Source: an uncultured bacterium (lineage in GTDB: Bacteria; UBP4; UBA4092). From it: a stretch of 64,000 nucleotides of DNA. The translations under genes were made by a program, and so were the position numbers. Where the stretch lies: NCBI GenBank assembly GCA_964644695.1, contig CAZXWN010000006.1, positions 196-64,195 of the forward strand. Reading direction: 5' to 3'. A model generated the notes under the pieces. It was given only the letters and a program-made list of their open reading frames with translations, was not told where the DNA came from and did not search any database. This document shows, in pieces, positions 11,283-58,347 of this stretch. Positions within the stretch are counted from its first letter, which is position 1. The number at the start of each line of letters is the position of its first letter.

Positions 11283-11858
11283 TTAGGTAAAGATGGGTAG
11301 TTCTGGGGGTATCCAAGGTACTTCCGGGCATCCCTCCCGTTTATTAACTGTCCTGGACATAACAAAGAGTAAATCTGATAACCGATTAAGATATTTCAGT
11401 CCCTCACGGTTAATGGTTTCTAAGGACATTAATACAACAACTGACCGTTCTGCCCTGCGGCACACACAGCGGGCTACATGGATTCTCCCTGCGGTCTCCG
11501 TTCCATTGGGAAGAACAAAATTTTTCAATGGCGGAAGGTCTTTTTCTAATTGGTCAATCCATTTTTCCAATTGTGTTGTATGAGTGTCTCTGATCCGATA
11601 CACGATTTTCTTTTTTTTGTCGGCGTTATCTGTTTCCATGCTGGATAAATCGGCTCCCAGTTCAAACAAATCCCCTTGAATCCGGGCAATCATATCGCGA
11701 AGGTCCGACTCTTTCAGCTTGGATAATACCAAACCCAACCAGGAGTTCAGCTCGTCCACATTACCGTAAGCTTCAATCCGGGCATTTGATTTTGGAACTT
11801 TCCCCCCGACGAAAAGGTAGGTTTCTCCCTGGTCGCCGGTTCGTGTGTATATACGCAT
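11283..11858 (-). CDS. pduO: ATP:cob(I)alamin adenosyltransferase, PduO type
   Basis: MRIYTRTGDQGET, EAYGNVDELNS, RCVCRRAER, YLNRLSDLLF. Alternative TTG start at 11897. Confidence 0.93.
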   Translation of the reverse strand: MRIYTRTGDQGETYLFVGGKVPKSNARIEAYGNVDELNSWLGLVLSKLKESDLRDMIARIQGDLFELGADLSSMETDNADKKKKIVYRIRDTHTTQLEKWIDQLEKDLPPLKNFVLPNGTETAGRIHVARCVCRRAERSVVVLMSLETINREGLKYLNRLSDLLFVMSRTVNKREGCPEVPWIPPELPIFT

Positions 11859-11945
11859 ATGATTGTCAGAATAGTGAATATCTGGTTTGTCTGTCAAGTG
11901 AGCCTCAAATTATCCCTGATATCCTCATAAAGAGGTATTCTACAA

Positions 11946-11992
11946 ACGAAGAATCCACGGACTTAGTCCGAGCAGCTCCGTGAATGGTTCGT
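11946..11992. repeat. 47-bp palindromic intergenic repeat, copy 1
   Basis: acgaagaatccacgga-cttagtccgagcagc-tccgtgaatggttcgt; homologous to 31230-31276 and 54464-54510. Confidence 0.85.
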
Positions 11993-12008: not shown

Positions 12009-12491
12009 TTAAAGATTATCTTTTTGGAGAAGTACGATGGATTGGACCGCAATTCCCTGTTTATCCCCCAGAGCACCCAAATGTTTAGGGGTGGTGGCTT
12101 TCAGGCTCAGTGCATCGGGTTCGATTTTCAACAGGGGGCACAAGTGTTCCATCATAGAGGGCAAATGGGGTCCCAGTTTAGGAACTTGAGCGATAATCGT
12201 TGCATCGACATTTACGATATGGTAACCCTTCTCATGGATGAGGGTCATGGTTCTTTCCAGGAGTATCAGGCTTCGGATTCCCATCACTTCAGGAGTTCCG
12301 ACCCCAAAGACTCGACCAATATCTCCTAAAGCCAAAGCACCTAACAGGGCATCAATCAGGGAGTGAGCCAACACATCCGCATCGGAATCCCCTTCCAGAC
12401 CTCTTTCGTTGGGAATCGTTACTCCACCAAGCACCAATGGCCGGTTATCCATAAAAGGATGAACATCGAAACCTAATCCAACTCGATACAT
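12009..12491 (-). CDS. ispF: 2-C-methyl-D-erythritol 2,4-cyclodiphosphate synthase
   Basis: RVGLGFDVHPF, LVLGGV, SDADVLAH, DALLGA..LGDIG; 1-nt overlap with ispD stop. Confidence 0.96.
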   Translation of the reverse strand: MYRVGLGFDVHPFMDNRPLVLGGVTIPNERGLEGDSDADVLAHSLIDALLGALALGDIGRVFGVGTPEVMGIRSLILLERTMTLIHEKGYHIVNVDATIIAQVPKLGPHLPSMMEHLCPLLKIEPDALSLKATTPKHLGALGDKQGIAVQSIVLLQKDNL

Positions 12492-30135: not shown

Positions 30136-31146
30136 ATGCCAAATCCTGAACATGAATCCATTGTCCGAGAATTGACCAGCCGAATCCGCACCTGGCGTAA
30201 AAAACACCCTGATGTACAACTGGACCTCCGGGAAGCCAGTCTGCAGGATGTAGAGATGCCCTATGCGGATTTACATGGAGCGGATCTGACCTCATCGGAC
30301 CTGTCGGTGGCGGATTTATCTCAATCGGATTTATCGGAAACCCTGCTGCGGTCTGCGAATTTGTTCGGGGCAAAACTTCGGGGTGCCCGATTGACTGGAG
30401 CCGATTTGTTCTCTGCGGATTTACGGGGTTCGGATTTACGGGATTGTGACCTGACCGGAGTTAATCTGATCGGGGCGGCATTGACCGGAGCGAAACTTCA
30501 GGGATGTAACTTCACTGACACACTGATGGGTTTTACAGCTTTGGGAGATGTCGATTTATCTGGGGCGATAGGACTCGAAACCGTCAAACATTACGGCCCG
30601 TCAATTATCGGATTTGATACCTTACACCGGTCCATGGGGAAAATCTCTCCCGTTTTCTTGGAAGGATGTGGTGTGTCTGCCGATTCATTCCGGGCTGCCG
30701 CCGAAACTTTATCCAAACTACCTTCGTATCTGACCTGCTATCTCCTGTTTACCGCAGACGGAAAAGACCTGGCGGATAAACTGGCTTCCAGTTTGAATCA
30801 AAAGAAAATCCGAATCTGGAAATGGCAGTCGGAAGATGAGAACTCTCCATTGGTGGCAGCGCTGGACCAGGCTATCGACTTGTACGATAAATTGATTCTT
30901 CTGGGAACCAAAGAATCCCTTGAGAATCCAGACATTATCAGAGAAATTGACCAGGCACTTAAGAAGGAAAAATCAAACGGGACTCGGATATTGTACCTGC
31001 TGGATGTGGACGGGTATGCGGCGGAACATTGGCAAGACCCCAAAGCACTCACTCTCCAGGCCCGGGGTATCATTGATTTTGCAAACTGGCAGGACGATTA
31101 CCGATACTTCAAATCTCTCGACCAGTTGACCTCACACCTTAAATAA
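30136..31146 (+). CDS. Pentapeptide-repeat protein with C-terminal TIR (TIR_2-like) domain
   Basis: ADLxx pentapeptides (ADLHG ADLTS SDLSV ADLSQ); C-terminal TIR-like pattern DQAIDLYDKLILL..REID..EK..RILYLL.VD. Confidence 0.8.
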   Translation: MPNPEHESIVRELTSRIRTWRKKHPDVQLDLREASLQDVEMPYADLHGADLTSSDLSVADLSQSDLSETLLRSANLFGAKLRGARLTGADLFSADLRGSDLRDCDLTGVNLIGAALTGAKLQGCNFTDTLMGFTALGDVDLSGAIGLETVKHYGPSIIGFDTLHRSMGKISPVFLEGCGVSADSFRAAAETLSKLPSYLTCYLLFTADGKDLADKLASSLNQKKIRIWKWQSEDENSPLVAALDQAIDLYDKLILLGTKESLENPDIIREIDQALKKEKSNGTRILYLLDVDGYAAEHWQDPKALTLQARGIIDFANWQDDYRYFKSLDQLTSHLK

Positions 31147-31229
31147 AAATATCTATTCCGACCCTCTTCCAGAAACGAAGAGGGTCCCTTATATCACCTC
31201 TCTTATCAGAATTTACAACTCTCCCCCGA

Positions 31230-31276
31230 ACGACTCACCCACGGACCTGCTCGGACTACCTCCGTGAATGATTCGC
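31230..31276. repeat. 47-bp palindromic intergenic repeat, copy 2
   Basis: acgactcacccacgga-cctgctcggactacc-tccgtgaatgattcgc. Confidence 0.8.
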
Positions 31277-31435
31277 TATAAAATCAGCGTTACTTATTGC
31301 ATGAAGTATATAGGGAAAAGGCTGTATTAGAAGTTTAAAACGCACAGGTTTTGTCGTGTAAAAGTTGAATAATTGATTTGGGATAATTATAATCTAAACA
31401 AAAGATATAAAACTAAATCATTGGGGTCGTGTGAT

Positions 31436-34400
31436 ATGAAACGATTATCATGTTTTATTCAAGGAAGTATTATTTTAACTTTTTGTTTAACGATTGTTTC
31501 TTCTGTCTGGAGTAGTCCTCAGGTAAAAGGAGTAAACCTTCCGCAATATTTCATTGAGAATCGTGGACAGGCAGACAGTCAAATAAGGTATTATTCTCCC
31601 AATGGGGATTTCTATTTCACTCCAGACGGGATTTTTACTCACCTGATAAAACGAGAATCCGTTACAGGTCAGGACTCGTCTTTGATTCATGAAAAACATG
31701 TCGTTTTGAAGAAACACTTTTTGAAGGCGAATACTTCCTGTGAAATAGTGGGTGAGAATGAGCTTCCCGGTAAAGTGAATTACTTTATTGGAAATGACTC
31801 CACCAAGTGGAAGACCCATCTAAAGACATTCAAACAAGTCAGATATAAGAATATCTATCCAGGAATTGACCTTGTCTATCATGGAAACAACGGTCCCACT
31901 GAATATGATTTAGTGATAAGTCCAGAAGCCCCTGTTTCCCAAATCGAATCTGTTATTGAAGGTGCGGATAAACTGGAATTATCTTCTGATGGAGATTTAT
32001 TAGTACATACTCCCCTGGGTATTCTGAAAGAGAAATCTCCCGTATCCTATCAGGAAAATGCTGGATTAAAACAGTCTGTCTCCAGCCACTTCTCTTTGTC
32101 CGCTCAGAATACGCTCTCGTTCTCTGTTTCTCAATATGATAAATCCAAAATTCTCGTAATAGATCCCTTGATATATTCCAGCTTCCTGGGGAATGGTGAT
32201 ACAACTGATATGTTTTCCAGTAAAGTCATCCTGGATTCTGATGATAACTACTATATTGCCGGAGTTACGATGTTCAACAACTTTTCCGTAACTCCCGGAG
32301 CTTATGATACAACTTATAGTGCAGGGCAGGATGGATTTATCACGAAAATCAATTCCTCAGGTTCGGCACTGATTTTTTCAACTTATCTGGGTGGTTCTTC
32401 TATGGACTACATTAGTGGAGTTACACTGGATACTTCCCGTAATATTTTTATGACAGGAACATCTCGTTCTTCAAATTTCCCCATTACTCCCGGTGCATTT
32501 GATTCAACTCTGAATTCTCAATTTGATGGTGATTATATTGTTGTAAAATTAAACGCCACAGGTTCATCTCTTATCTACTCAACCTTTATTGGGGGAAATA
32601 ATGATGATCAAGCCTATGGGATTGCTGTAGATTCTACAGGATGTGCCTATGTTGCTGGATTTACCCTGTCAACAGATTTTCCTCTGGTGTCGGCATTTGA
32701 TACAACCTGTGTCAATGGTGAAATAGGTGTATGCAAACTTAATAATACGGGAACCGCTCTGTTATATTCTTCATATCTGGGTGGGACAAGCTGGGATTCT
32801 GTCGCAGATCTCGTGCTTGATGCTAAAAATAATGCTTATATTACTGGGGTGACGTCTTCCACTGATTTCCCAATAACGAGTGGCGCTGCTGATTCTACTC
32901 ATAACGGGAATATGGATGTGTACTTAGCTATTATTGATTCCTATGGGGCACTGTCTTGCGCGAGTTTTATTGGGGGAAATAGTTCGGATATGGGGAATGC
33001 GATTGCCCTTGATAGTACGGGTAATATTTATATTGCCGGGGAAACAATGTCTAATAATTTCCCAACTACTTCCGGTGTCGTTGATCCAACTTTCGATTCA
33101 TATTCTGATGCTTTTATTGCAAAATTTAACCCCACAGGAACACAAATACTTTATTCCACTCTTCTAAGTGGAAATAATTCTGAAACTATTTATGACATGG
33201 TTGTGGATTCTGCGGGCAATGCGATTGTTACAGGAGGTACTAGTTCACCGAATTTCCTGGTGAGCAGTTATCCAATAGACAATACCCATAATGGTGATTT
33301 TGATGTTTTTGTCTCAAAGTTAAATTCAAATGGAACTGCCATACTCTATTCAACCTATATGGGTGACACTGGCAGAGATGTGGGGACGGGTATTACTCTC
33401 GACAGTCATGGAAATGCTTGTATTACAGGGTATACTTTGTCTCCGAATTTCACTATCACGGATAATGCTCTTGAATCCGCGTTTTCTCACCACTTTTTTG
33501 CCAAACTGTCATTGTATGATGTTCCACCCAATTCTCAGCCAGACATCTTCAAACTACCTGACCTGAAACTGTTTGTTGGTGAAAGTGTGGCAAACATAAT
33601 GGATTTGGAAAAATATAATGATGGATTAACGGGAGATTCTTACCAATTCCTTTCTAATTTCATGGGTTTGGAGAGCTTATCTGGCAGTACCGTATCTCAA
33701 AATGCTTACAGCAGTGCTACGGTTGGAAGTAATACCTATGTCATCAGTAATCTTTATGGGGCCTGTACGGTCAGTAATAAAGTGAAATACTCTACCTATA
33801 AATTAAGAAAACTTCCTGTTGTAGCTTTGAAACCGGGACAGTCTGAAACGATTGATCTTTCTGGATATTGTTATGGTGATTCAGGTACTACAACACCAGA
33901 AAGCTTCGGAAATCCTGACAGTATTTTTGAAAGTAATCCTTCTTTAGTGACGGGGAACTGGAATGGAAGTAATAAAGTTGTCATCAGCTCACTGGGTGGA
34001 TTTACCAGTGGTCAAGCCCGGATTGAAGTGGTCGCATCTACCGTTTCAACAGAACCGTTTGACGAAGATTATGATAAAGAACCTGTCCATGTCTATCCTG
34101 ATTTACTGAATGCTGGCTCCTTTACATCAAGTACTGATTTAACAAATCAGTTTGGAGTTGAGGGTATCGCTGGTTTGTCTCTTCCCACAATCGGATACCT
34201 CTCCACCGTAACCGATATTAAAGGAAAAGAACTCTCTGGAGTTATTTCTTTCGGATTTGTGGGGAATACCCAGGGTGTGAAACTGACCCCCAAGATTGAA
34301 AATATGGTATCTTGCGACTCTGACCAGTGGTGGACAGCTCGTGTCCGGGTTTATAGTCCTAATCCCGGGAATTCCATGGAAGCACAGGTATATAATTTCC

Positions 34401-35179
34401 GGGGAATTATTCCGGGAGACAGCGTGGTTGATTTAGGAGCTAATATTCTGTTTGGTGTCCCTACTGCCTGGAGTTGGATAGATATTCCCGTCTACACAAC
34501 GGCAACTGGAAAAGGGTATCCTCAAATTATCCTGAAGGGTGGGAGTGGTTCTGGAACGATTTACCTCCAATCGGTCCAATACTTCCAGGGAGTCCCGATT
34601 CTATTTGATGGGAATCGGGGTAATCATGATTCAAAATATCCTTATCGAAAACCCTCTACAATGAGTCAATTAAGCAGTGGTTGGGCAACTGGTGAGATGT
34701 ATGGGACTGAGACGCCGACAGGATTAGGATTCAGCATTGAAAGCAGTAGTTTGGTCTTGGATTACTCCGGAGCCGCTACCGGTAATAATCAGAAAGGTTC
34801 CAAGATAACAGCCAAGAAACCTGAAGGGGGCGTTTTTACCAGTCAGACTGTTCCTGGATACCAGGCGGGTATGAAGATGAAAGTGGAGAAATTATCCGGG
34901 AGTTTTAATACCTATGATGCGATTCTGTTGTTAGCCTGCTATGGAGTTCAAAGTGAGGGCGGTTATGATTTCTGGAGTCCCGGTGGACAATTGATCGCTT
35001 CTGCCCAGTTTGGGGATATAAGTGATGGATGGCACTGCCTCGCAGCTCCAGTCCGGAATTCCTGGCAACAATTCCAGTTTGTTACTAAAAACAGCCAGTC
35101 TGGGAAAATTAAAGTTCATGAAGTTGATTTCCTTCGTGACATGGATGACCCCTACTATGGCGATGGAAATTACTTTTAA
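31436..35179 (+). CDS. Large secreted SBBP beta-propeller repeat protein with unknown C-terminal region
   Basis: Signal peptide, FIENRGQ N-terminal domain, repeats of YxGG..D...IAxDSxGNxYxxGxTxSxxFP, about 550-aa unassigned C-terminus. Confidence 0.85.
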   Translation: MKRLSCFIQGSIILTFCLTIVSSVWSSPQVKGVNLPQYFIENRGQADSQIRYYSPNGDFYFTPDGIFTHLIKRESVTGQDSSLIHEKHVVLKKHFLKANTSCEIVGENELPGKVNYFIGNDSTKWKTHLKTFKQVRYKNIYPGIDLVYHGNNGPTEYDLVISPEAPVSQIESVIEGADKLELSSDGDLLVHTPLGILKEKSPVSYQENAGLKQSVSSHFSLSAQNTLSFSVSQYDKSKILVIDPLIYSSFLGNGDTTDMFSSKVILDSDDNYYIAGVTMFNNFSVTPGAYDTTYSAGQDGFITKINSSGSALIFSTYLGGSSMDYISGVTLDTSRNIFMTGTSRSSNFPITPGAFDSTLNSQFDGDYIVVKLNATGSSLIYSTFIGGNNDDQAYGIAVDSTGCAYVAGFTLSTDFPLVSAFDTTCVNGEIGVCKLNNTGTALLYSSYLGGTSWDSVADLVLDAKNNAYITGVTSSTDFPITSGAADSTHNGNMDVYLAIIDSYGALSCASFIGGNSSDMGNAIALDSTGNIYIAGETMSNNFPTTSGVVDPTFDSYSDAFIAKFNPTGTQILYSTLLSGNNSETIYDMVVDSAGNAIVTGGTSSPNFLVSSYPIDNTHNGDFDVFVSKLNSNGTAILYSTYMGDTGRDVGTGITLDSHGNACITGYTLSPNFTITDNALESAFSHHFFAKLSLYDVPPNSQPDIFKLPDLKLFVGESVANIMDLEKYNDGLTGDSYQFLSNFMGLESLSGSTVSQNAYSSATVGSNTYVISNLYGACTVSNKVKYSTYKLRKLPVVALKPGQSETIDLSGYCYGDSGTTTPESFGNPDSIFESNPSLVTGNWNGSNKVVISSLGGFTSGQARIEVVASTVSTEPFDEDYDKEPVHVYPDLLNAGSFTSSTDLTNQFGVEGIAGLSLPTIGYLSTVTDIKGKELSGVISFGFVGNTQGVKLTPKIENMVSCDSDQWWTARVRVYSPNPGNSMEAQVYNFRGIIPGDSVVDLGANILFGVPTAWSWIDIPVYTTATGKGYPQIILKGGSGSGTIYLQSVQYFQGVPILFDGNRGNHDSKYPYRKPSTMSQLSSGWATGEMYGTETPTGLGFSIESSSLVLDYSGAATGNNQKGSKITAKKPEGGVFTSQTVPGYQAGMKMKVEKLSGSFNTYDAILLLACYGVQSEGGYDFWSPGGQLIASAQFGDISDGWHCLAAPVRNSWQQFQFVTKNSQSGKIKVHEVDFLRDMDDPYYGDGNYF

Positions 35180-35290: not shown

Positions 35291-35320
35291 TTGACAGAGC
35301 CTCTGGATTCCCTATATACT
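35291..35320 (+). promoter_or_regulatory. Sigma70-type promoter for riboswitch-nrdDG
   Basis: TTGACA-18bp-TATACT, 8 bp before the riboswitch P1. Confidence 0.7.
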
Positions 35321-35328
35321 GACTCAAA

Positions 35329-35512
35329 GTATCGGTTCGCTTTTGTGATTAAAAAGCGTCCCAAGAGGGAATCCGGTGGAATTCCGGAACTGCCCCGCAG
35401 CGGTATTGAGGAACGAACACCGTCATTTAAGCACTGTTCCAGAAGGAATGGGAAGCGACGGTCAATAGTATAAAACCAGAATCAGCCTCTAAGTCCGAAG
35501 ACCTGCCGATAC
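35329..35512 (+). ncRNA. Cobalamin (AdoCbl) riboswitch
   Basis: P1 gtatcgg/ccgatac; core aagagggaatccggtggaattccggaactgccccgcagcggt; GGGAAG; B12-box-like aagtccgaagacctgcc. Confidence 0.92.
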
Positions 35513-35763
35513 AACGCAATTATATTGCGTAAGACGACTTGCAGCCTTCGCGGGAAGGGTCAGGACGAACAGGCCATCAGAAAGATACGCTATATTCTGG
35601 GGACCTCCTCCATCCTGAATTCATTATCCTTTTCCGTACGGTCTGCTCAATATTGCTCGAGGGGAGCAATGTCGTACGGAGTAAGCAGACAGGATATTTC
35701 GCTTCACTGTTATTCCGCGCACGATTCTATTCCTCCCCCGAAATAATACAGGAGAATTTTGCT

Positions 35764-41028: not shown

Positions 41029-42408
41029 TTAGATGCTGACGTTATTGTTACGCAGCAGGGTTTGAACTTTCTTAACATCCACATTTCGGGGAAGAATATT
41101 ATCCTTGATGGAGATAGCCATAGCATATCCAGCGGCTTCACCCATGGTTCGGATAATACCCTGTACCCGCATGGCGGATTGACCTTCAAACGTAGCGGAG
41201 ATACATCGGCCCACCACTAATAGATTTTCAATCTTAAGAGGTACCATCGTCCGATAAGGCAATTCATAGAACCGTTCCCGGCTATGTTCACCAAACTCAA
41301 CCGACACATCCTTTTTAGTGGGTTGATGAATGTCCAGAGGATAGTTTCCTTTAACAATGACATCCTCAAATCGTGCAGGCTTGACTACATCTTGTGCGGT
41401 GAACACATATTCGCCAACAATTCGACGAGATTCACGAACGCCCACCATAGGTGCGGTCAATGCAATAAAGGCATTTTCAAAACCCGGGATATATTTTTTG
41501 CAGAAGGCGGCAACACGTCGAATTTTCTGTCTGCCGATAATTTGAGCATTGGATAAATCTTCGACATCATATCCCTTCACCCGATTGGTAATTCGGGGAC
41601 AGTTAAAAGACATTTCTCCAGGACGCCCGGGCATGGAGAAGTTTTGGAAATAGACAACGTCTTCAGCTGTCACATCGCCAGCGGCGATAGCTTTCTCAAA
41701 TATGGGACCCAACAGCCATTTACCATTAGGAGTATAAGCCGTTTCAACAAAGGGCCATTCGTAACGTACCCCATTCGTTTCATGTTCGTTTAGGAATGCG
41801 CACAATTTATCAAAGTCAATGCCCCCCATATTGAAGCGAAGAGACATCGCCTGATTTAATCCATCTTCCTTACGGCCTGATTCATAGGGAACACCTGCGG
41901 AGACCGAAACATCTGCATCACCTGTCGCATCAATGACTCTCTTGGCCAAGATGGCCTGACGGCCGGATTTTGACTGAAGAATCACCCCTTTGATCACATT
42001 GTTTTCAACAATAGTATCCGCAAAGAAACTGTGATACCGAAGTTTGACTCCAGCTTCCAGACATAAGTCTTCTAAAACATATTTGAGCATTTCGGGATTG
42101 AACCAACCATCGGCAATACCCGGCTGTTCTCCAGAATCGCCTGTTGCCAACATTCTTTGGCGAATTTCTTCGTTAATACCGCCAATCGTGGAGTGGTTGT
42201 CTGCCGTAATCAGCATTAAAGGGGTTACTAATGCTCCGGTCTGAGATCCACCCAGAAAACCAAACTGTTCTACTAAGATTACATCAAGACCTTCTCTGGC
42301 AGCAGCTATGGCGGATATCACTCCACCCGTGCCCCCTCCCACAACAATCAAGTCACACTGAGCCACGACTTCTGTTTTACGGCCCATTTCTTCAATAAAC
42401 TGGTTCAT
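41029..42408 (-). CDS. FAD-dependent oxidoreductase (PF12831-like)
   Basis: DLIVVGGGTGG..AA.AAAR.G, IDATGDAD, RESRRIVG, NLLVVGRCIS; ATG 42408 behind GGAG. Confidence 0.9.
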   Translation of the reverse strand: MNQFIEEMGRKTEVVAQCDLIVVGGGTGGVISAIAAAREGLDVILVEQFGFLGGSQTGALVTPLMLITADNHSTIGGINEEIRQRMLATGDSGEQPGIADGWFNPEMLKYVLEDLCLEAGVKLRYHSFFADTIVENNVIKGVILQSKSGRQAILAKRVIDATGDADVSVSAGVPYESGRKEDGLNQAMSLRFNMGGIDFDKLCAFLNEHETNGVRYEWPFVETAYTPNGKWLLGPIFEKAIAAGDVTAEDVVYFQNFSMPGRPGEMSFNCPRITNRVKGYDVEDLSNAQIIGRQKIRRVAAFCKKYIPGFENAFIALTAPMVGVRESRRIVGEYVFTAQDVVKPARFEDVIVKGNYPLDIHQPTKKDVSVEFGEHSRERFYELPYRTMVPLKIENLLVVGRCISATFEGQSAMRVQGIIRTMGEAAGYAMAISIKDNILPRNVDVKKVQTLLRNNNVSI

Positions 42409-54463: not shown

Positions 54464-54510
54464 ACGAATCATCCACGGAGCAGCTCGGACCAGGTCCGTG
54501 GATGATTCGT
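54464..54510. repeat. 47-bp palindromic intergenic repeat, copy 3 (perfect 16-bp arms)
   Basis: acgaatcatccacgga-gcagctcggaccagg-tccgtggatgattcgt. Confidence 0.88.
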
Positions 54511-54568: not shown

Positions 54569-55561
54569 TTAGAGGGTGGGGAGGGTTTCCAGATATTGAT
54601 TCGTCAGATTACAAAATTCAGCGTACTGGTGAATATTGTTGAGCTGACCACGAAGATGAGAGGCTCTCGGCCATCCTTCAATATAATAATGAGCATGAGT
54701 CCGAAACATCCTGCAGGCAATATCTTCGCCATAAATATCAACCATCATCGAAAGATGTTCCCGCATTAATGCAATTCTCTCGGAAACTGGAGGTTCTGGA
54801 CTGGCAATTTGTCCCGATAACAGTTCAAGTGTTTGGGCAAATATCCACGGATGACCCATGGCACCCCGGGCAAGCATCGCCCCATCAATTCCCGTTTCAT
54901 TGAACATCCGGATAATATCCGGAGCTTTCATCAGTCCCCCAGACCCGATAACCGGAATGTTCAGGATAGCTTTGAGTTCCTTTAATAATTCCCATCTGGG
55001 AGTGCCGGAATAGGGTTTATCTGCTGTTCTGGGGTGTAGTGTGATAGCTGACAGTCCCGTTCCTTTAAGTTTTTCTGCAATCTCCAGAATGTTAATGGTA
55101 TTTTCTGTTCTCCCAGACCGAATCTTGATCGTTACCGGCACCTTCACCGCCGAGACCATTTGATGAATCATCTCTGCCAGACGGTCAGGGTCGGACATCA
55201 TGGCCGCCCCCGCATTTTGTTTGATTACTTTTTTTACGGGACATCCACAATTGATATCAATGACAGCCGCTCCATGGTCTTCCACAATACGGGCGGCTTT
55301 GACCATTCGGTCAGGTTCGGAACCAAATAATTGAACTCCCAGAGGCTGGTCATCGGGAGTGGTTTTTAACATTTCAAAGGTCTTTTTAGAATCGTAATGA
55401 AGCGCCGTTGCGGATACCATCTCCGTAAAAGCCAGGGCCGCCCCATACCGTCTGCACAAAAGCCGAAAGGGTAAATCAGTGAATCCAGCCAGTGGAGCCA
55501 GGATCAAAGGATTTGGAAGGGTCAGAGTGCCTATTTTCAGGGGTTGAATCATAAAGTTCAA
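54569..55561 (-). CDS. dusB: tRNA-dihydrouridine synthase B
   Basis: LAPLAGFTD.PFR, TEMVSA, VQLFG, DINCGCP, VTIKIR, HPRT. Confidence 0.94.
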   Translation of the reverse strand: MNFMIQPLKIGTLTLPNPLILAPLAGFTDLPFRLLCRRYGAALAFTEMVSATALHYDSKKTFEMLKTTPDDQPLGVQLFGSEPDRMVKAARIVEDHGAAVIDINCGCPVKKVIKQNAGAAMMSDPDRLAEMIHQMVSAVKVPVTIKIRSGRTENTINILEIAEKLKGTGLSAITLHPRTADKPYSGTPRWELLKELKAILNIPVIGSGGLMKAPDIIRMFNETGIDGAMLARGAMGHPWIFAQTLELLSGQIASPEPPVSERIALMREHLSMMVDIYGEDIACRMFRTHAHYYIEGWPRASHLRGQLNNIHQYAEFCNLTNQYLETLPTL

Positions 55562-58270: not shown

Positions 58271-58347
58271 GCGCCCGTAGCTCAGTTGGATAGAGCAGCG
58301 GTTTCCTAAACCGTTGGTCGGGGGTTCAACTCCCTCCGGGCGCACCA
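58271..58347 (+). tRNA. tRNA-Arg (CCT)
   Basis: GCGCCCG/CGGGCGC acceptor, D-arm AGCTCAGTTGGATAGAGC, anticodon loop TTCCTAA, T-loop GTTCAAC, encoded CCA. Confidence 0.95.

Follow-up and report, generated by a model that had tools for sequence, protein, structure and literature searches.

Short palindromic DNA sites that recur along a bacterial chromosome are known in several forms. The matS sites read by MatP in the Ter region of Escherichia coli, the Noc-binding sites (NBS) of Bacillus subtilis and the SlmA-binding sites (SBS) of E. coli are palindromic duplex sites, present in tens of copies, whose placement is tied to the replication map and each of which is read by a dimeric or multimeric protein; matS, for example, is a 13-bp site with 23 repeats in the 800-kb Ter region (PMC3330122). 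Repetitive extragenic palindromes (REP), bacterial interspersed mosaic elements (BIME) and the REP-derived REPINs are short, extragenic and species-specific, reach hundreds of copies and are sometimes mosaic with other motifs, and REPINs are mostly found in doublets a fixed short distance apart, beyond which their spacing is random (PMC3116915). The ends of immune transposons (Mu, Tn7 and the Tn3 family) carry phased, inverted protein-binding repeats and exclude further insertion, in Mu over several kb (PMC7350765), while the uptake sequences of the Pasteurellaceae (USS) and Neisseriaceae (DUS) are over-represented lineage-specific motifs reported to be distributed more evenly than chance (PMC1939737). 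Here we describe a 47-bp palindrome, termed P, which recalls each of these systems in some respect. It was noticed in a 64,000-nucleotide stretch of an uncultured bacterium (lineage UBP4, UBA4092; assembly GCA_964644695.1), called the window below, which covers positions 196-64195 of contig C6 (CAZXWN010000006.1) and carries three copies, among them the one at 54464-54510. An earlier note on the window had left open whether the repeat is an element of the REP type or a miniature inverted-repeat transposable element (MITE), a recombination or protein-binding site, or a structured RNA. Stopping just short of even confidence, we regard P and two related families as duplex protein-binding sites kept by the host in a quasi-periodic array with region-specific types, most likely serving to organise the chromosome.

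The genome searched is a 98.7%-complete draft of 3.07 Mb in 28 contigs, from a class that by the kinship labels of the genome searches is sparsely sampled, and all gene-context counts given here rest on crude longest-ORF (open reading frame) calls. An nhmmer profile built from pattern hits and run across the whole genome returned 126 P loci, one per 24 kb and 125 of them matched on both strands, which bears out the suggestion that three copies in the window imply many per genome; the refuting case named in the earlier note, three copies in all that match a known operator or Rfam family, does not hold. Scores from an unfiltered run are bimodal: 311 hits at or below 11 bits are noise, 125 copies score 33-68 bits and a lone half-copy at 20 bits falls in between, which leaves no trailing group of decayed copies. 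The blocks of the consensus, CGAA-N6-ACGGA-N5-TC-S-GA-N5-TCCGT-N6-TTCG, make up a 47-bp palindrome that is near-perfect and has one G:C pair at its centre; in the alignment of 242 arms the half-site reads AA-CGAA-N6-ACGGA-N5-TC. Of these arms 241 contain ACGGA, with adjacent positions only about 50-60% conserved, and about 86-96% contain CGAA, its C, G and A being invariant across 52 aligned copies. The asymmetric core GCTCGGAC, thought at first sight to be invariant, is so in the three window copies only: genome-wide the invariant at the centre is reduced to TC-S-GA and the nearby triplets vary (GCT, CCT, GCA, CTT, GTT and others). What stands of that description is that self-complementarity is uncommon at the centre. 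Pairing between the inner triplets of the left and right arms is below chance (z = -3 to -4), and one possible reason for the central asymmetry may be avoidance of a long perfect palindrome. A likeness of the ATCCACGG part to a DnaA box was rejected because those positions are among the variable ones, and no replication-oriented polarity of the central G/C relative to local GC skew was seen (33:33 and 14:28). Placement is intergenic: of the 118 copies that could be classified, 109 lie in called gaps between genes, the rest mostly in doubtful ORFs of 80-100 amino acids and none in long ORFs. By gap, 52 copies are tandem, 32 divergent and 25 convergent, near the background mix of gap classes; convergent gaps are most often occupied (29% of those of at least 100 bp), and sites fill 17-36% of all long intergenic gaps.

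Two related families complete the set. The G family, (a)TCGAACRAGAT-NN-ATCTYGTTCGA(t), also written (a)TCGAACAAGATCGATCTTGTTCGA(t), comprises 35 copies of 24-36-bp palindromes, of which 33 are found on contig C1 (C1:112953-828105, example locus L200), 10-20 kb apart, where P is missing. The S family, AACGAAsCAGAwACGAAknGGG, is a direct-repeat form with two 11-bp ACGAA units; it was defined by pattern, and nine hits inside ORFs were set aside as doubtful. S is fused to P ('type B' arms), lies 8 nt beside P ('type C') or stands alone, the stand-alone copies including those on contigs C10, C13 and C19, all of which are without P. All three families are built from CGAA/TTCG units with 10-11-bp phasing, and the pattern ACGAA-N6-ACGRA is found 210 times here as against nine times in the control, and at background level in 12 relatives. 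The layout of the families is tied to the replication map. On C1 the cumulative GC skew climbs to about 375 kb and then falls, as expected of the terminus; C1:225-600 kb holds 23 G and two P copies, the shoulders are mixed and the contig ends have almost only P. G accordingly occupies a terminus region of about 400 kb, centred on the GC-skew maximum in the manner of a macrodomain-type site, with P nearly absent there; P extends over most of the chromosome and S is found on P-free contigs. The dnaA gene lies on C2, where there is no skew switch, and the single parAB locus lies on C13, which carries S only; this raises the suspicion that S marks origin-proximal DNA, and our guess is that S is the origin-proximal type. 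A search for ParB_N found a single gene in the genome, hence no Noc-like paralogue; nor was a MatP or SlmA gene identified, no search having been aimed at these two. A DnaA paralogue of 566 aa (C1:706623-708323), with a GspE/MshE-like N-terminus as judged by eye, then an acidic linker and the DnaA AAA+ module (328 bits to TIGR00362, positions 51-343), was considered as a binder of the sites and rejected: it lacks DNA-binding domain IV, and no link to the sites was found. As to G itself, 13 copies have an extra TTCG 11 nt beyond the palindrome, to its right on the plus strand, and three have it to the left, and a reading of G as the LexA 'Cheo box' (GAAC-N4-GTTC) was discarded, as its spacing is N12 and not N4 and its copy number and layout are unlike those of a regulon.

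The spacing of these sites departs strongly from chance. None of the 104 within-contig intervals from one P copy to the next is shorter than 7.9 kb, where a Poisson process of the same mean gives about 31 under 8 kb. P, G and S together make 185 sites (about 185-190), which were compared with 2000 simulated sets placed at random in eligible gaps, those 100 bp or longer. No observed interval is under 6 kb (null mean 53, minimum 36), the coefficient of variation (CV) of spacing is 0.42 (null mean 1.03, minimum 0.75) and the widest gap measures 45 kb (98 kb on average in the null, at minimum 46.6 kb). Intervals have a median of 14 kb, or about 12 genes, and the shortest is about 6.8 kb. The families also avoid one another, since none of the 46 G and S sites is closer than 7.9 kb to a P, where circular shifts place a mean of 17 within 6 kb. 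A search for further site families in the long gaps yielded none besides one degenerate G copy. This regularity is not an assembly artefact, because the copies are mostly internal to contigs, only about four distinct contig ends lie in a copy, and independent Joint Genome Institute (JGI) contigs of up to 13.9 kb agree in having exactly one copy each. Contigs break in or beside P palindromes at the C9 end and C3 start, C5:13, C6:22 and C26:76; the C9 end and C3 start share one common copy that is bridged by metagenome contig L111, and are therefore chromosomal neighbours. The relative G004 shows like contig breaks at its own G-type palindromes.

Comparison with a second strain reveals that the copies are held in place. 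In public metagenomes the P motif was found only in Ga0116193 and Ga0208826, on 53 contigs 92-99% identical to the genome, whose source is a second strain of about 97% average nucleotide identity (ANI). All 49 P copies inside aligned DNA occupy orthologous positions and none is unique to either strain, the comparison being one-sided in that the metagenome contigs were retrieved for carrying a copy. In gapped alignments of 42 loci between the strains, the conserved blocks show 13 differences in 1050 positions (1.2% divergence), as against 31/924 (3.4%) at the variable core positions, 375/7293 (5.1%) in flanking intergenic DNA and 72/3291 (2.2%) in nearby coding DNA. The blocks thus change about four times more slowly than the flanking spacer (Fisher p = 2e-10 for blocks against flanks), and ACGGA/TCCGT shows a single change in 420 positions between strains. 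Each P copy is under purifying selection where it is located; that the blocks are held while the spacers vary, and in every copy, indicates recognition that is sequence-specific and of consequence locus by locus. At three places a strain-specific indel or replacement directly adjoins a P copy. A strain-specific DUF975 gene starts 3 nt beyond a P arm (C11:30211-31002 against metagenome contig L125), and a strain-specific gene of 371 aa with no Pfam match (C24:3104-4333 against L092), flanked by a duplicated 40-bp terminator, lies 35 nt from a P copy.

P and G differ in age. Among the relatives searched, the P pattern and a sequence-only covariance model found P in this genome only, a range of one genus or species. 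GAACRAGA-N3-6-TCTYGTTC, the core of G, is found 33 times here, and the counts in three further genomes of its class are 46, 19 and 57, with no occurrence in one family-level relative, four outgroups or the reversed-pattern control. In 1.2 Mb of the relative G002 (C2:1-1200000, loci L133-L192) there are 62 loci of five palindrome families, among them a G-like one and one that is 49 bp long and has only one base at its centre: (a) GTAGAGACGTAACATGTTACGTCTCTAC; (b) ATGAACGAGAyc..TCTCGTTCAT; (c) the 49-bp GGAGTTGAAGTGGAATTGAAAATTTCAATTCC...; (d) GGGATGAAGGAGATCGATCTCCTTCATCCC; and (e) GGAGGTATACCTAGGAGGGTCAGACCCTCC.... Different families of G002 are often paired within 100 bp. Ends of synteny blocks between the two genomes are enriched two- to threefold for a site (p = 0.002-0.03), and in G002 a palindrome is present in 10 of 69 break-point gaps as against 5 of 163 others; we do not rely on this enrichment, which is confounded by gap length given that sites occupy so large a share of the long intergenic gaps.

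The one-faced inverted blocks, the lack of selection for a hairpin considered below, the selection in place, the class-wide motif and the layout tied to the terminus lead us to read these repeats as putative duplex binding sites. Of the options in the earlier note, that of a protein-binding site suits the data best in its invariant blocks 10-11 bp apart, its arms without covariation and its copy-by-copy purifying selection, and from the sequence we judge specific binding by a protein to be probable. CGAA, ACGGA and TC, being 10-11 bp apart, would present themselves on one face of the helix, and with the two halves inverted P would be a double-stranded site for a putative sequence-specific protein, probably a multimer, neither hairpin-forming nor mobile; G would be an older, class-wide palindrome of the same site system. 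As with matS, NBS and SBS, P is a palindromic duplex in which sequence rather than structure is conserved, and P, G and S would likewise be read by a protein. In contrast to these systems, P, G and S measure 24-47 bp, carry three phased blocks in each half, number about 190 chromosome-wide, are strictly intergenic and quasi-periodic and keep a hard minimum distance. The sites may be anchoring or loading points of a nucleoid protein that reaches a few kb to either side, a reach which would explain both the exclusion of neighbours and a site type of the terminus's own; mutual exclusion could stem from the reach of the bound protein or from a cost of very small domains. An architectural role of this kind is possible, though we hold it somewhat more tentatively than the family-level reading given at the outset.

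Proposed bacterial supercoil domains are about 10 kb in size, and their boundaries are regarded as stochastic. If a protein reads the sites described here, the genome sequence would encode regular domains of about 14 kb, not far from that size, and the setting of boundaries would become testable. The fuller proposal, a chromosome-wide scaffold of quasi-periodic putative sites at about one per 14 kb or 12 genes, with G at the terminus, P on the arms and S possibly near the origin, is on balance doubtful. Were it true, it would amount to hard-wired, DNA-encoded loop or topological domains, an organisation of the bacterial chromosome not described before, and the class-wide G motif would imply a conserved architectural protein. 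Several observations weigh against an organising function. The order of the P, G and S regions is known for C1 only in this 28-contig draft; matS, NBS and SBS are 12-16 bp long and, unlike P, G and S, are not evenly spaced; and a sharp lower limit with a long right tail is the mark of an exclusion process, whether target immunity or selection against close pairs, and not specifically of a functional ruler. Other repeat modules (types B and C; R3-R6) form mosaics around the sites, and some strain-specific gene insertions adjoin the sites, both of which recall mobile or recombinogenic elements. In G002, finally, the five families are intermixed and only weakly regular (CV 0.65; nine intervals under 6 kb where 16 are expected), and with such weak under-dispersion the strict spacing rule is not generalised.

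Dispersed bacterial repeats are usually filed as selfish elements of the REP or MITE kind, which cluster, and the strongest of the other explanations is that P is a mobile but non-autonomous repeat, either of REP/REPIN or MITE kind or dependent on some recombinase, whose insertion is blocked near existing copies as in target immunity, the family of which may now be immobile or domesticated. We consider this unlikely, despite a good deal that it would accommodate. P has the REP/REPIN trait of a short extragenic imperfect palindrome in high copy number (126); it is dispersed, intergenic and confined to one genus, its copies are built into mosaics with other repeat modules, contigs break at copies, the three strain-specific changes noted above abut it, including the DUF975 gene 3 nt past an arm, and relatives have species-specific palindrome families of their own. 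The sharp lower bound and right-skewed tail of the spacing are those of a car-parking-like process, and the exclusion distance of about 6-8 kb matches the range of Mu cis-immunity, which peaks around 5 kb and has faded to bulk level at about 7 kb (PMC7350765). Yet the tests that define such elements fail, from a transposase, none of which was found, to target-site duplication, clustering, decay and presence/absence polymorphism. RAYT (IS200/IS605-like Y1, PF01797) is absent from the 98.7%-complete genome and was detected in control genomes; PF00665 (rve) and PF01609 (DDE_Tnp_1) are absent as well, other transposase families not having been searched, and the genome has no multicopy segments of at least 300 bp resembling insertion sequences (IS). 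Two tyrosine recombinases resembling Xer and a single large serine recombinase are the only recombinases found. No excess of 2-8-bp direct repeats appears at any boundary from +/-20 to +/-31, and 'CG...CG' at +/-21-22 was rejected as a 2-bp duplication, being part of CGAA/TTCG blocks that recur as 11-bp units elsewhere. The immunity systems of Mu, Tn7 and Tn3 make 5-bp duplications and need rve or Tn3-type transposases; P differs from their ends in having neither a target-site duplication nor TG/CA termini and in copies that are fixed between strains, and neither an rve or DDE_Tnp_1 transposase nor an AAA+ target selector was identified in its genome. Unlike REPs and REPINs, P has no inverted doublets or clusters, the minimum distance between copies being 7.9 kb, shows no hairpin covariation and resides in a genome without RAYT. 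Among the 49 aligned copies no pair of filled and empty sites distinguishes the strains, decayed copies are lacking, the blocks are under purifying selection in place, the arms assort independently, contrary to what the copying of entire elements would give, and the G core is kept across a class. Should the spacing nevertheless reflect target immunity, it would be the first genome-wide immunity footprint of a miniature element without target-site duplication.

Three further explanations must be weighed against duplex binding sites of the host. That P acts as a hairpin at the RNA level, as a terminator without U-tract, a stabiliser of mRNA 3' ends or an RNase processing site in the manner of some REPs, is very improbable, even though the consensus is able to form a long fold, the window copy at 54464-54510 folds, as single-stranded DNA, at -20.1 kcal/mol (z = -7.4) and occupancy is highest in convergent gaps. 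Watson-Crick counts at the variable stem positions equal the expectation from re-dealing right arms among copies, without compensatory covariation (in 52 copies 79.9% of cells are paired as against 80.8 +/- 0.7% shuffled, with a covariation score of 0.112 against 0.118), and at the inner positions 5-7, which pair below expectation, G/C-type combinations are enriched and C/C depleted. As single strands, real 47-mers fold at a mean of -11.5 kcal/mol, no better than arm-swapped chimeras (-11.6 +/- 0.25; perfect palindromes -27.9), and left and right arms assort independently among copies; the symmetry of P therefore stems from two conserved copies of a half-site and not from pairing. With no T-run downstream and 32 copies between divergent genes P does not resemble an intrinsic terminator, the distribution over gap classes is near background, two of the three window copies fold weakly (-8.3 and -8.8 kcal/mol), the Rfam search of P returned only generic miRNA-precursor hairpins far below gathering scores, and a hairpin leaves the kb-scale spacing without explanation. 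The structured-RNA option thus finds no support.

Better provided for, if still quite improbable, is the idea that the sites serve self-recognition in DNA transfer, as a transformation uptake sequence or a packaging signal like that of a gene transfer agent (GTA), one per transferred fragment. Of the dispersed motifs of bacteria, only uptake sequences have been reported as significantly even in their spacing (Karlin et al., cited in PMC1939737), the absence of any gap above 45 kb would fit a need for one site in every fragment, and sequences that differ between lineages recall the dialects of uptake sequences. Such a system predicts a maximum gap, however, and not a hard minimum distance, and offers no reason for a terminus-specific type. 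Known uptake sequences measure 9-12 nt, recur at about one per kb and often lie within genes (PMC1939737), unlike palindromes of 24-47 bp about 14-15 kb apart that never lie in long ORFs; USS and DUS are moreover non-palindromic, have no regional types and keep no hard exclusion distance. An 11-bp phasing of half-sites is typical of winged-helix response regulators, and the sites might instead be the operator of a large regulon under a global regulator of the OmpR/PhoB or ArcA type bound to 11-bp-phased repeats. Besides the phasing, stand-alone S copies tend to point to a co-directional gene 100-500 bp downstream (19 of 27 by our own count) and type C composites lie upstream of a paralogous gene family with a conserved promoter. 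We nonetheless give the regulon scarcely any chance, since P and G fill convergent (3'/3') gaps at a higher rate than the other classes and occur also in tandem gaps inside apparent operons, and since an operator gives no reason for mutual exclusion across 7 kb or for terminus-specific sites.

Within the window the three copies previously recorded at 11946-11992 (minus strand), 31230-31276 and 54464-54510 were all recovered, and CACGGA-N3-GCTCGGAC-N4-TCCGTG has exactly three matches there as against none in 100 shuffles. The pairing of the 16-nt arms, counted from the sequence, is as had been claimed (16/16 in copy 3, at 54464-54510, 13/16 in copy 1, at 11946-11992, and 12/16 in copy 2, at 31230-31276), and no T-run follows any of them, in agreement with the U-tract said to be missing. 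Copy 3 (nhmmer 63.6 bits) is centred on G 54487. Read along the minus strand, on which both neighbours are encoded, it follows the stop codon of a Dus-like gene (54569-55561) by 58 nt and precedes the start of the next ORF (54306) by 158 nt. Its outer block CGAA occupies 54465-54468 with the mirror TTCG at 54506-54509, and the inner block ACGGA, 11 bp after the outer block, 54475-54479 with the mirror TCCGT at 54495-54499; the central block TC-G-GA at 54485-54489, invariant except for the central S, is flanked by the variable triplets (54480-54484 and 54490-54494), whose two sides are anticorrelated. Copy 2 (centre 31253, 47.1 bits, the fold of -8.3 kcal/mol) lies between plus-strand ORFs 30136-31146 and 31373-35179. 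At 31160-31186, 44 nt upstream of it, a small palindrome, GACCCTCTTC-cagaaac-GAAGAGGGTC, was read from the sequence and holds the second unit of the S motif (CAGAAACGAAGAGGGT), which marks it as a mosaic module of the P/S repeat system. Copy 1 (centre 11969, 58.7 bits, the fold of -8.8 kcal/mol) lies within the 111-bp gap separating minus-strand ORFs 12009-12491 and 11283-11897, and its ortholog was found in metagenome contig L122. An S-like match with two mismatches (ACGAACATGAAACGAATGGGG) at 41769-41789 on the minus strand, inside an ORF of 477 aa, falls at the 'expected' spacing between copies 2 and 3 (10.5 and 12.7 kb) and is probably due to chance.

Larger composites of the repeat modules were also seen. 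A composite of about 170 bp on C10, C13 and C19 (L193-L197), with at least five copies, consists of cTTGACA-N8-CCACTCCGyTTCCTGAA + ACGAACCAGATACGAATCGGG + TACGACCCTCACATGG...CCCCGTGAACTCCTCCGTAAA, and this S composite has no Rfam match. Paralogues of a secreted protein (N-terminus MRMMKLLLCLLVLVL...) are encoded at C2:192001, C6:75052 (about 11 kb past the window), C22:11793, C11:42700 and C14:1000; upstream of them is a conserved promoter-like region, TTGACAGTCCATGATAAAGGGTATAGAT, and every one is preceded by a type C composite made up of the P palindrome, the S motif and more repeat modules. A loose-pattern scan of public genomes returned only unrelated chance palindromes and repeats of other species. 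Such repeats include an unrelated dispersed CACGGATTTTTTCWGAAAAAATCCGTG palindrome family in the Chloroflexota metagenome-assembled genome (MAG) JAJRVT01 (L002-L077) and, in the Ilumatobacter MAG JAGQSS01 (L019-L078) and Acidimicrobiaceae MAGs, inverted CACGGA...TCCGTG palindrome pairs exactly 57-58 bp apart. The window itself has two Rfam matches at gathering threshold, a cobalamin riboswitch at 35316-35524 (103.9 bits) and a tRNA gene at 58271-58344.

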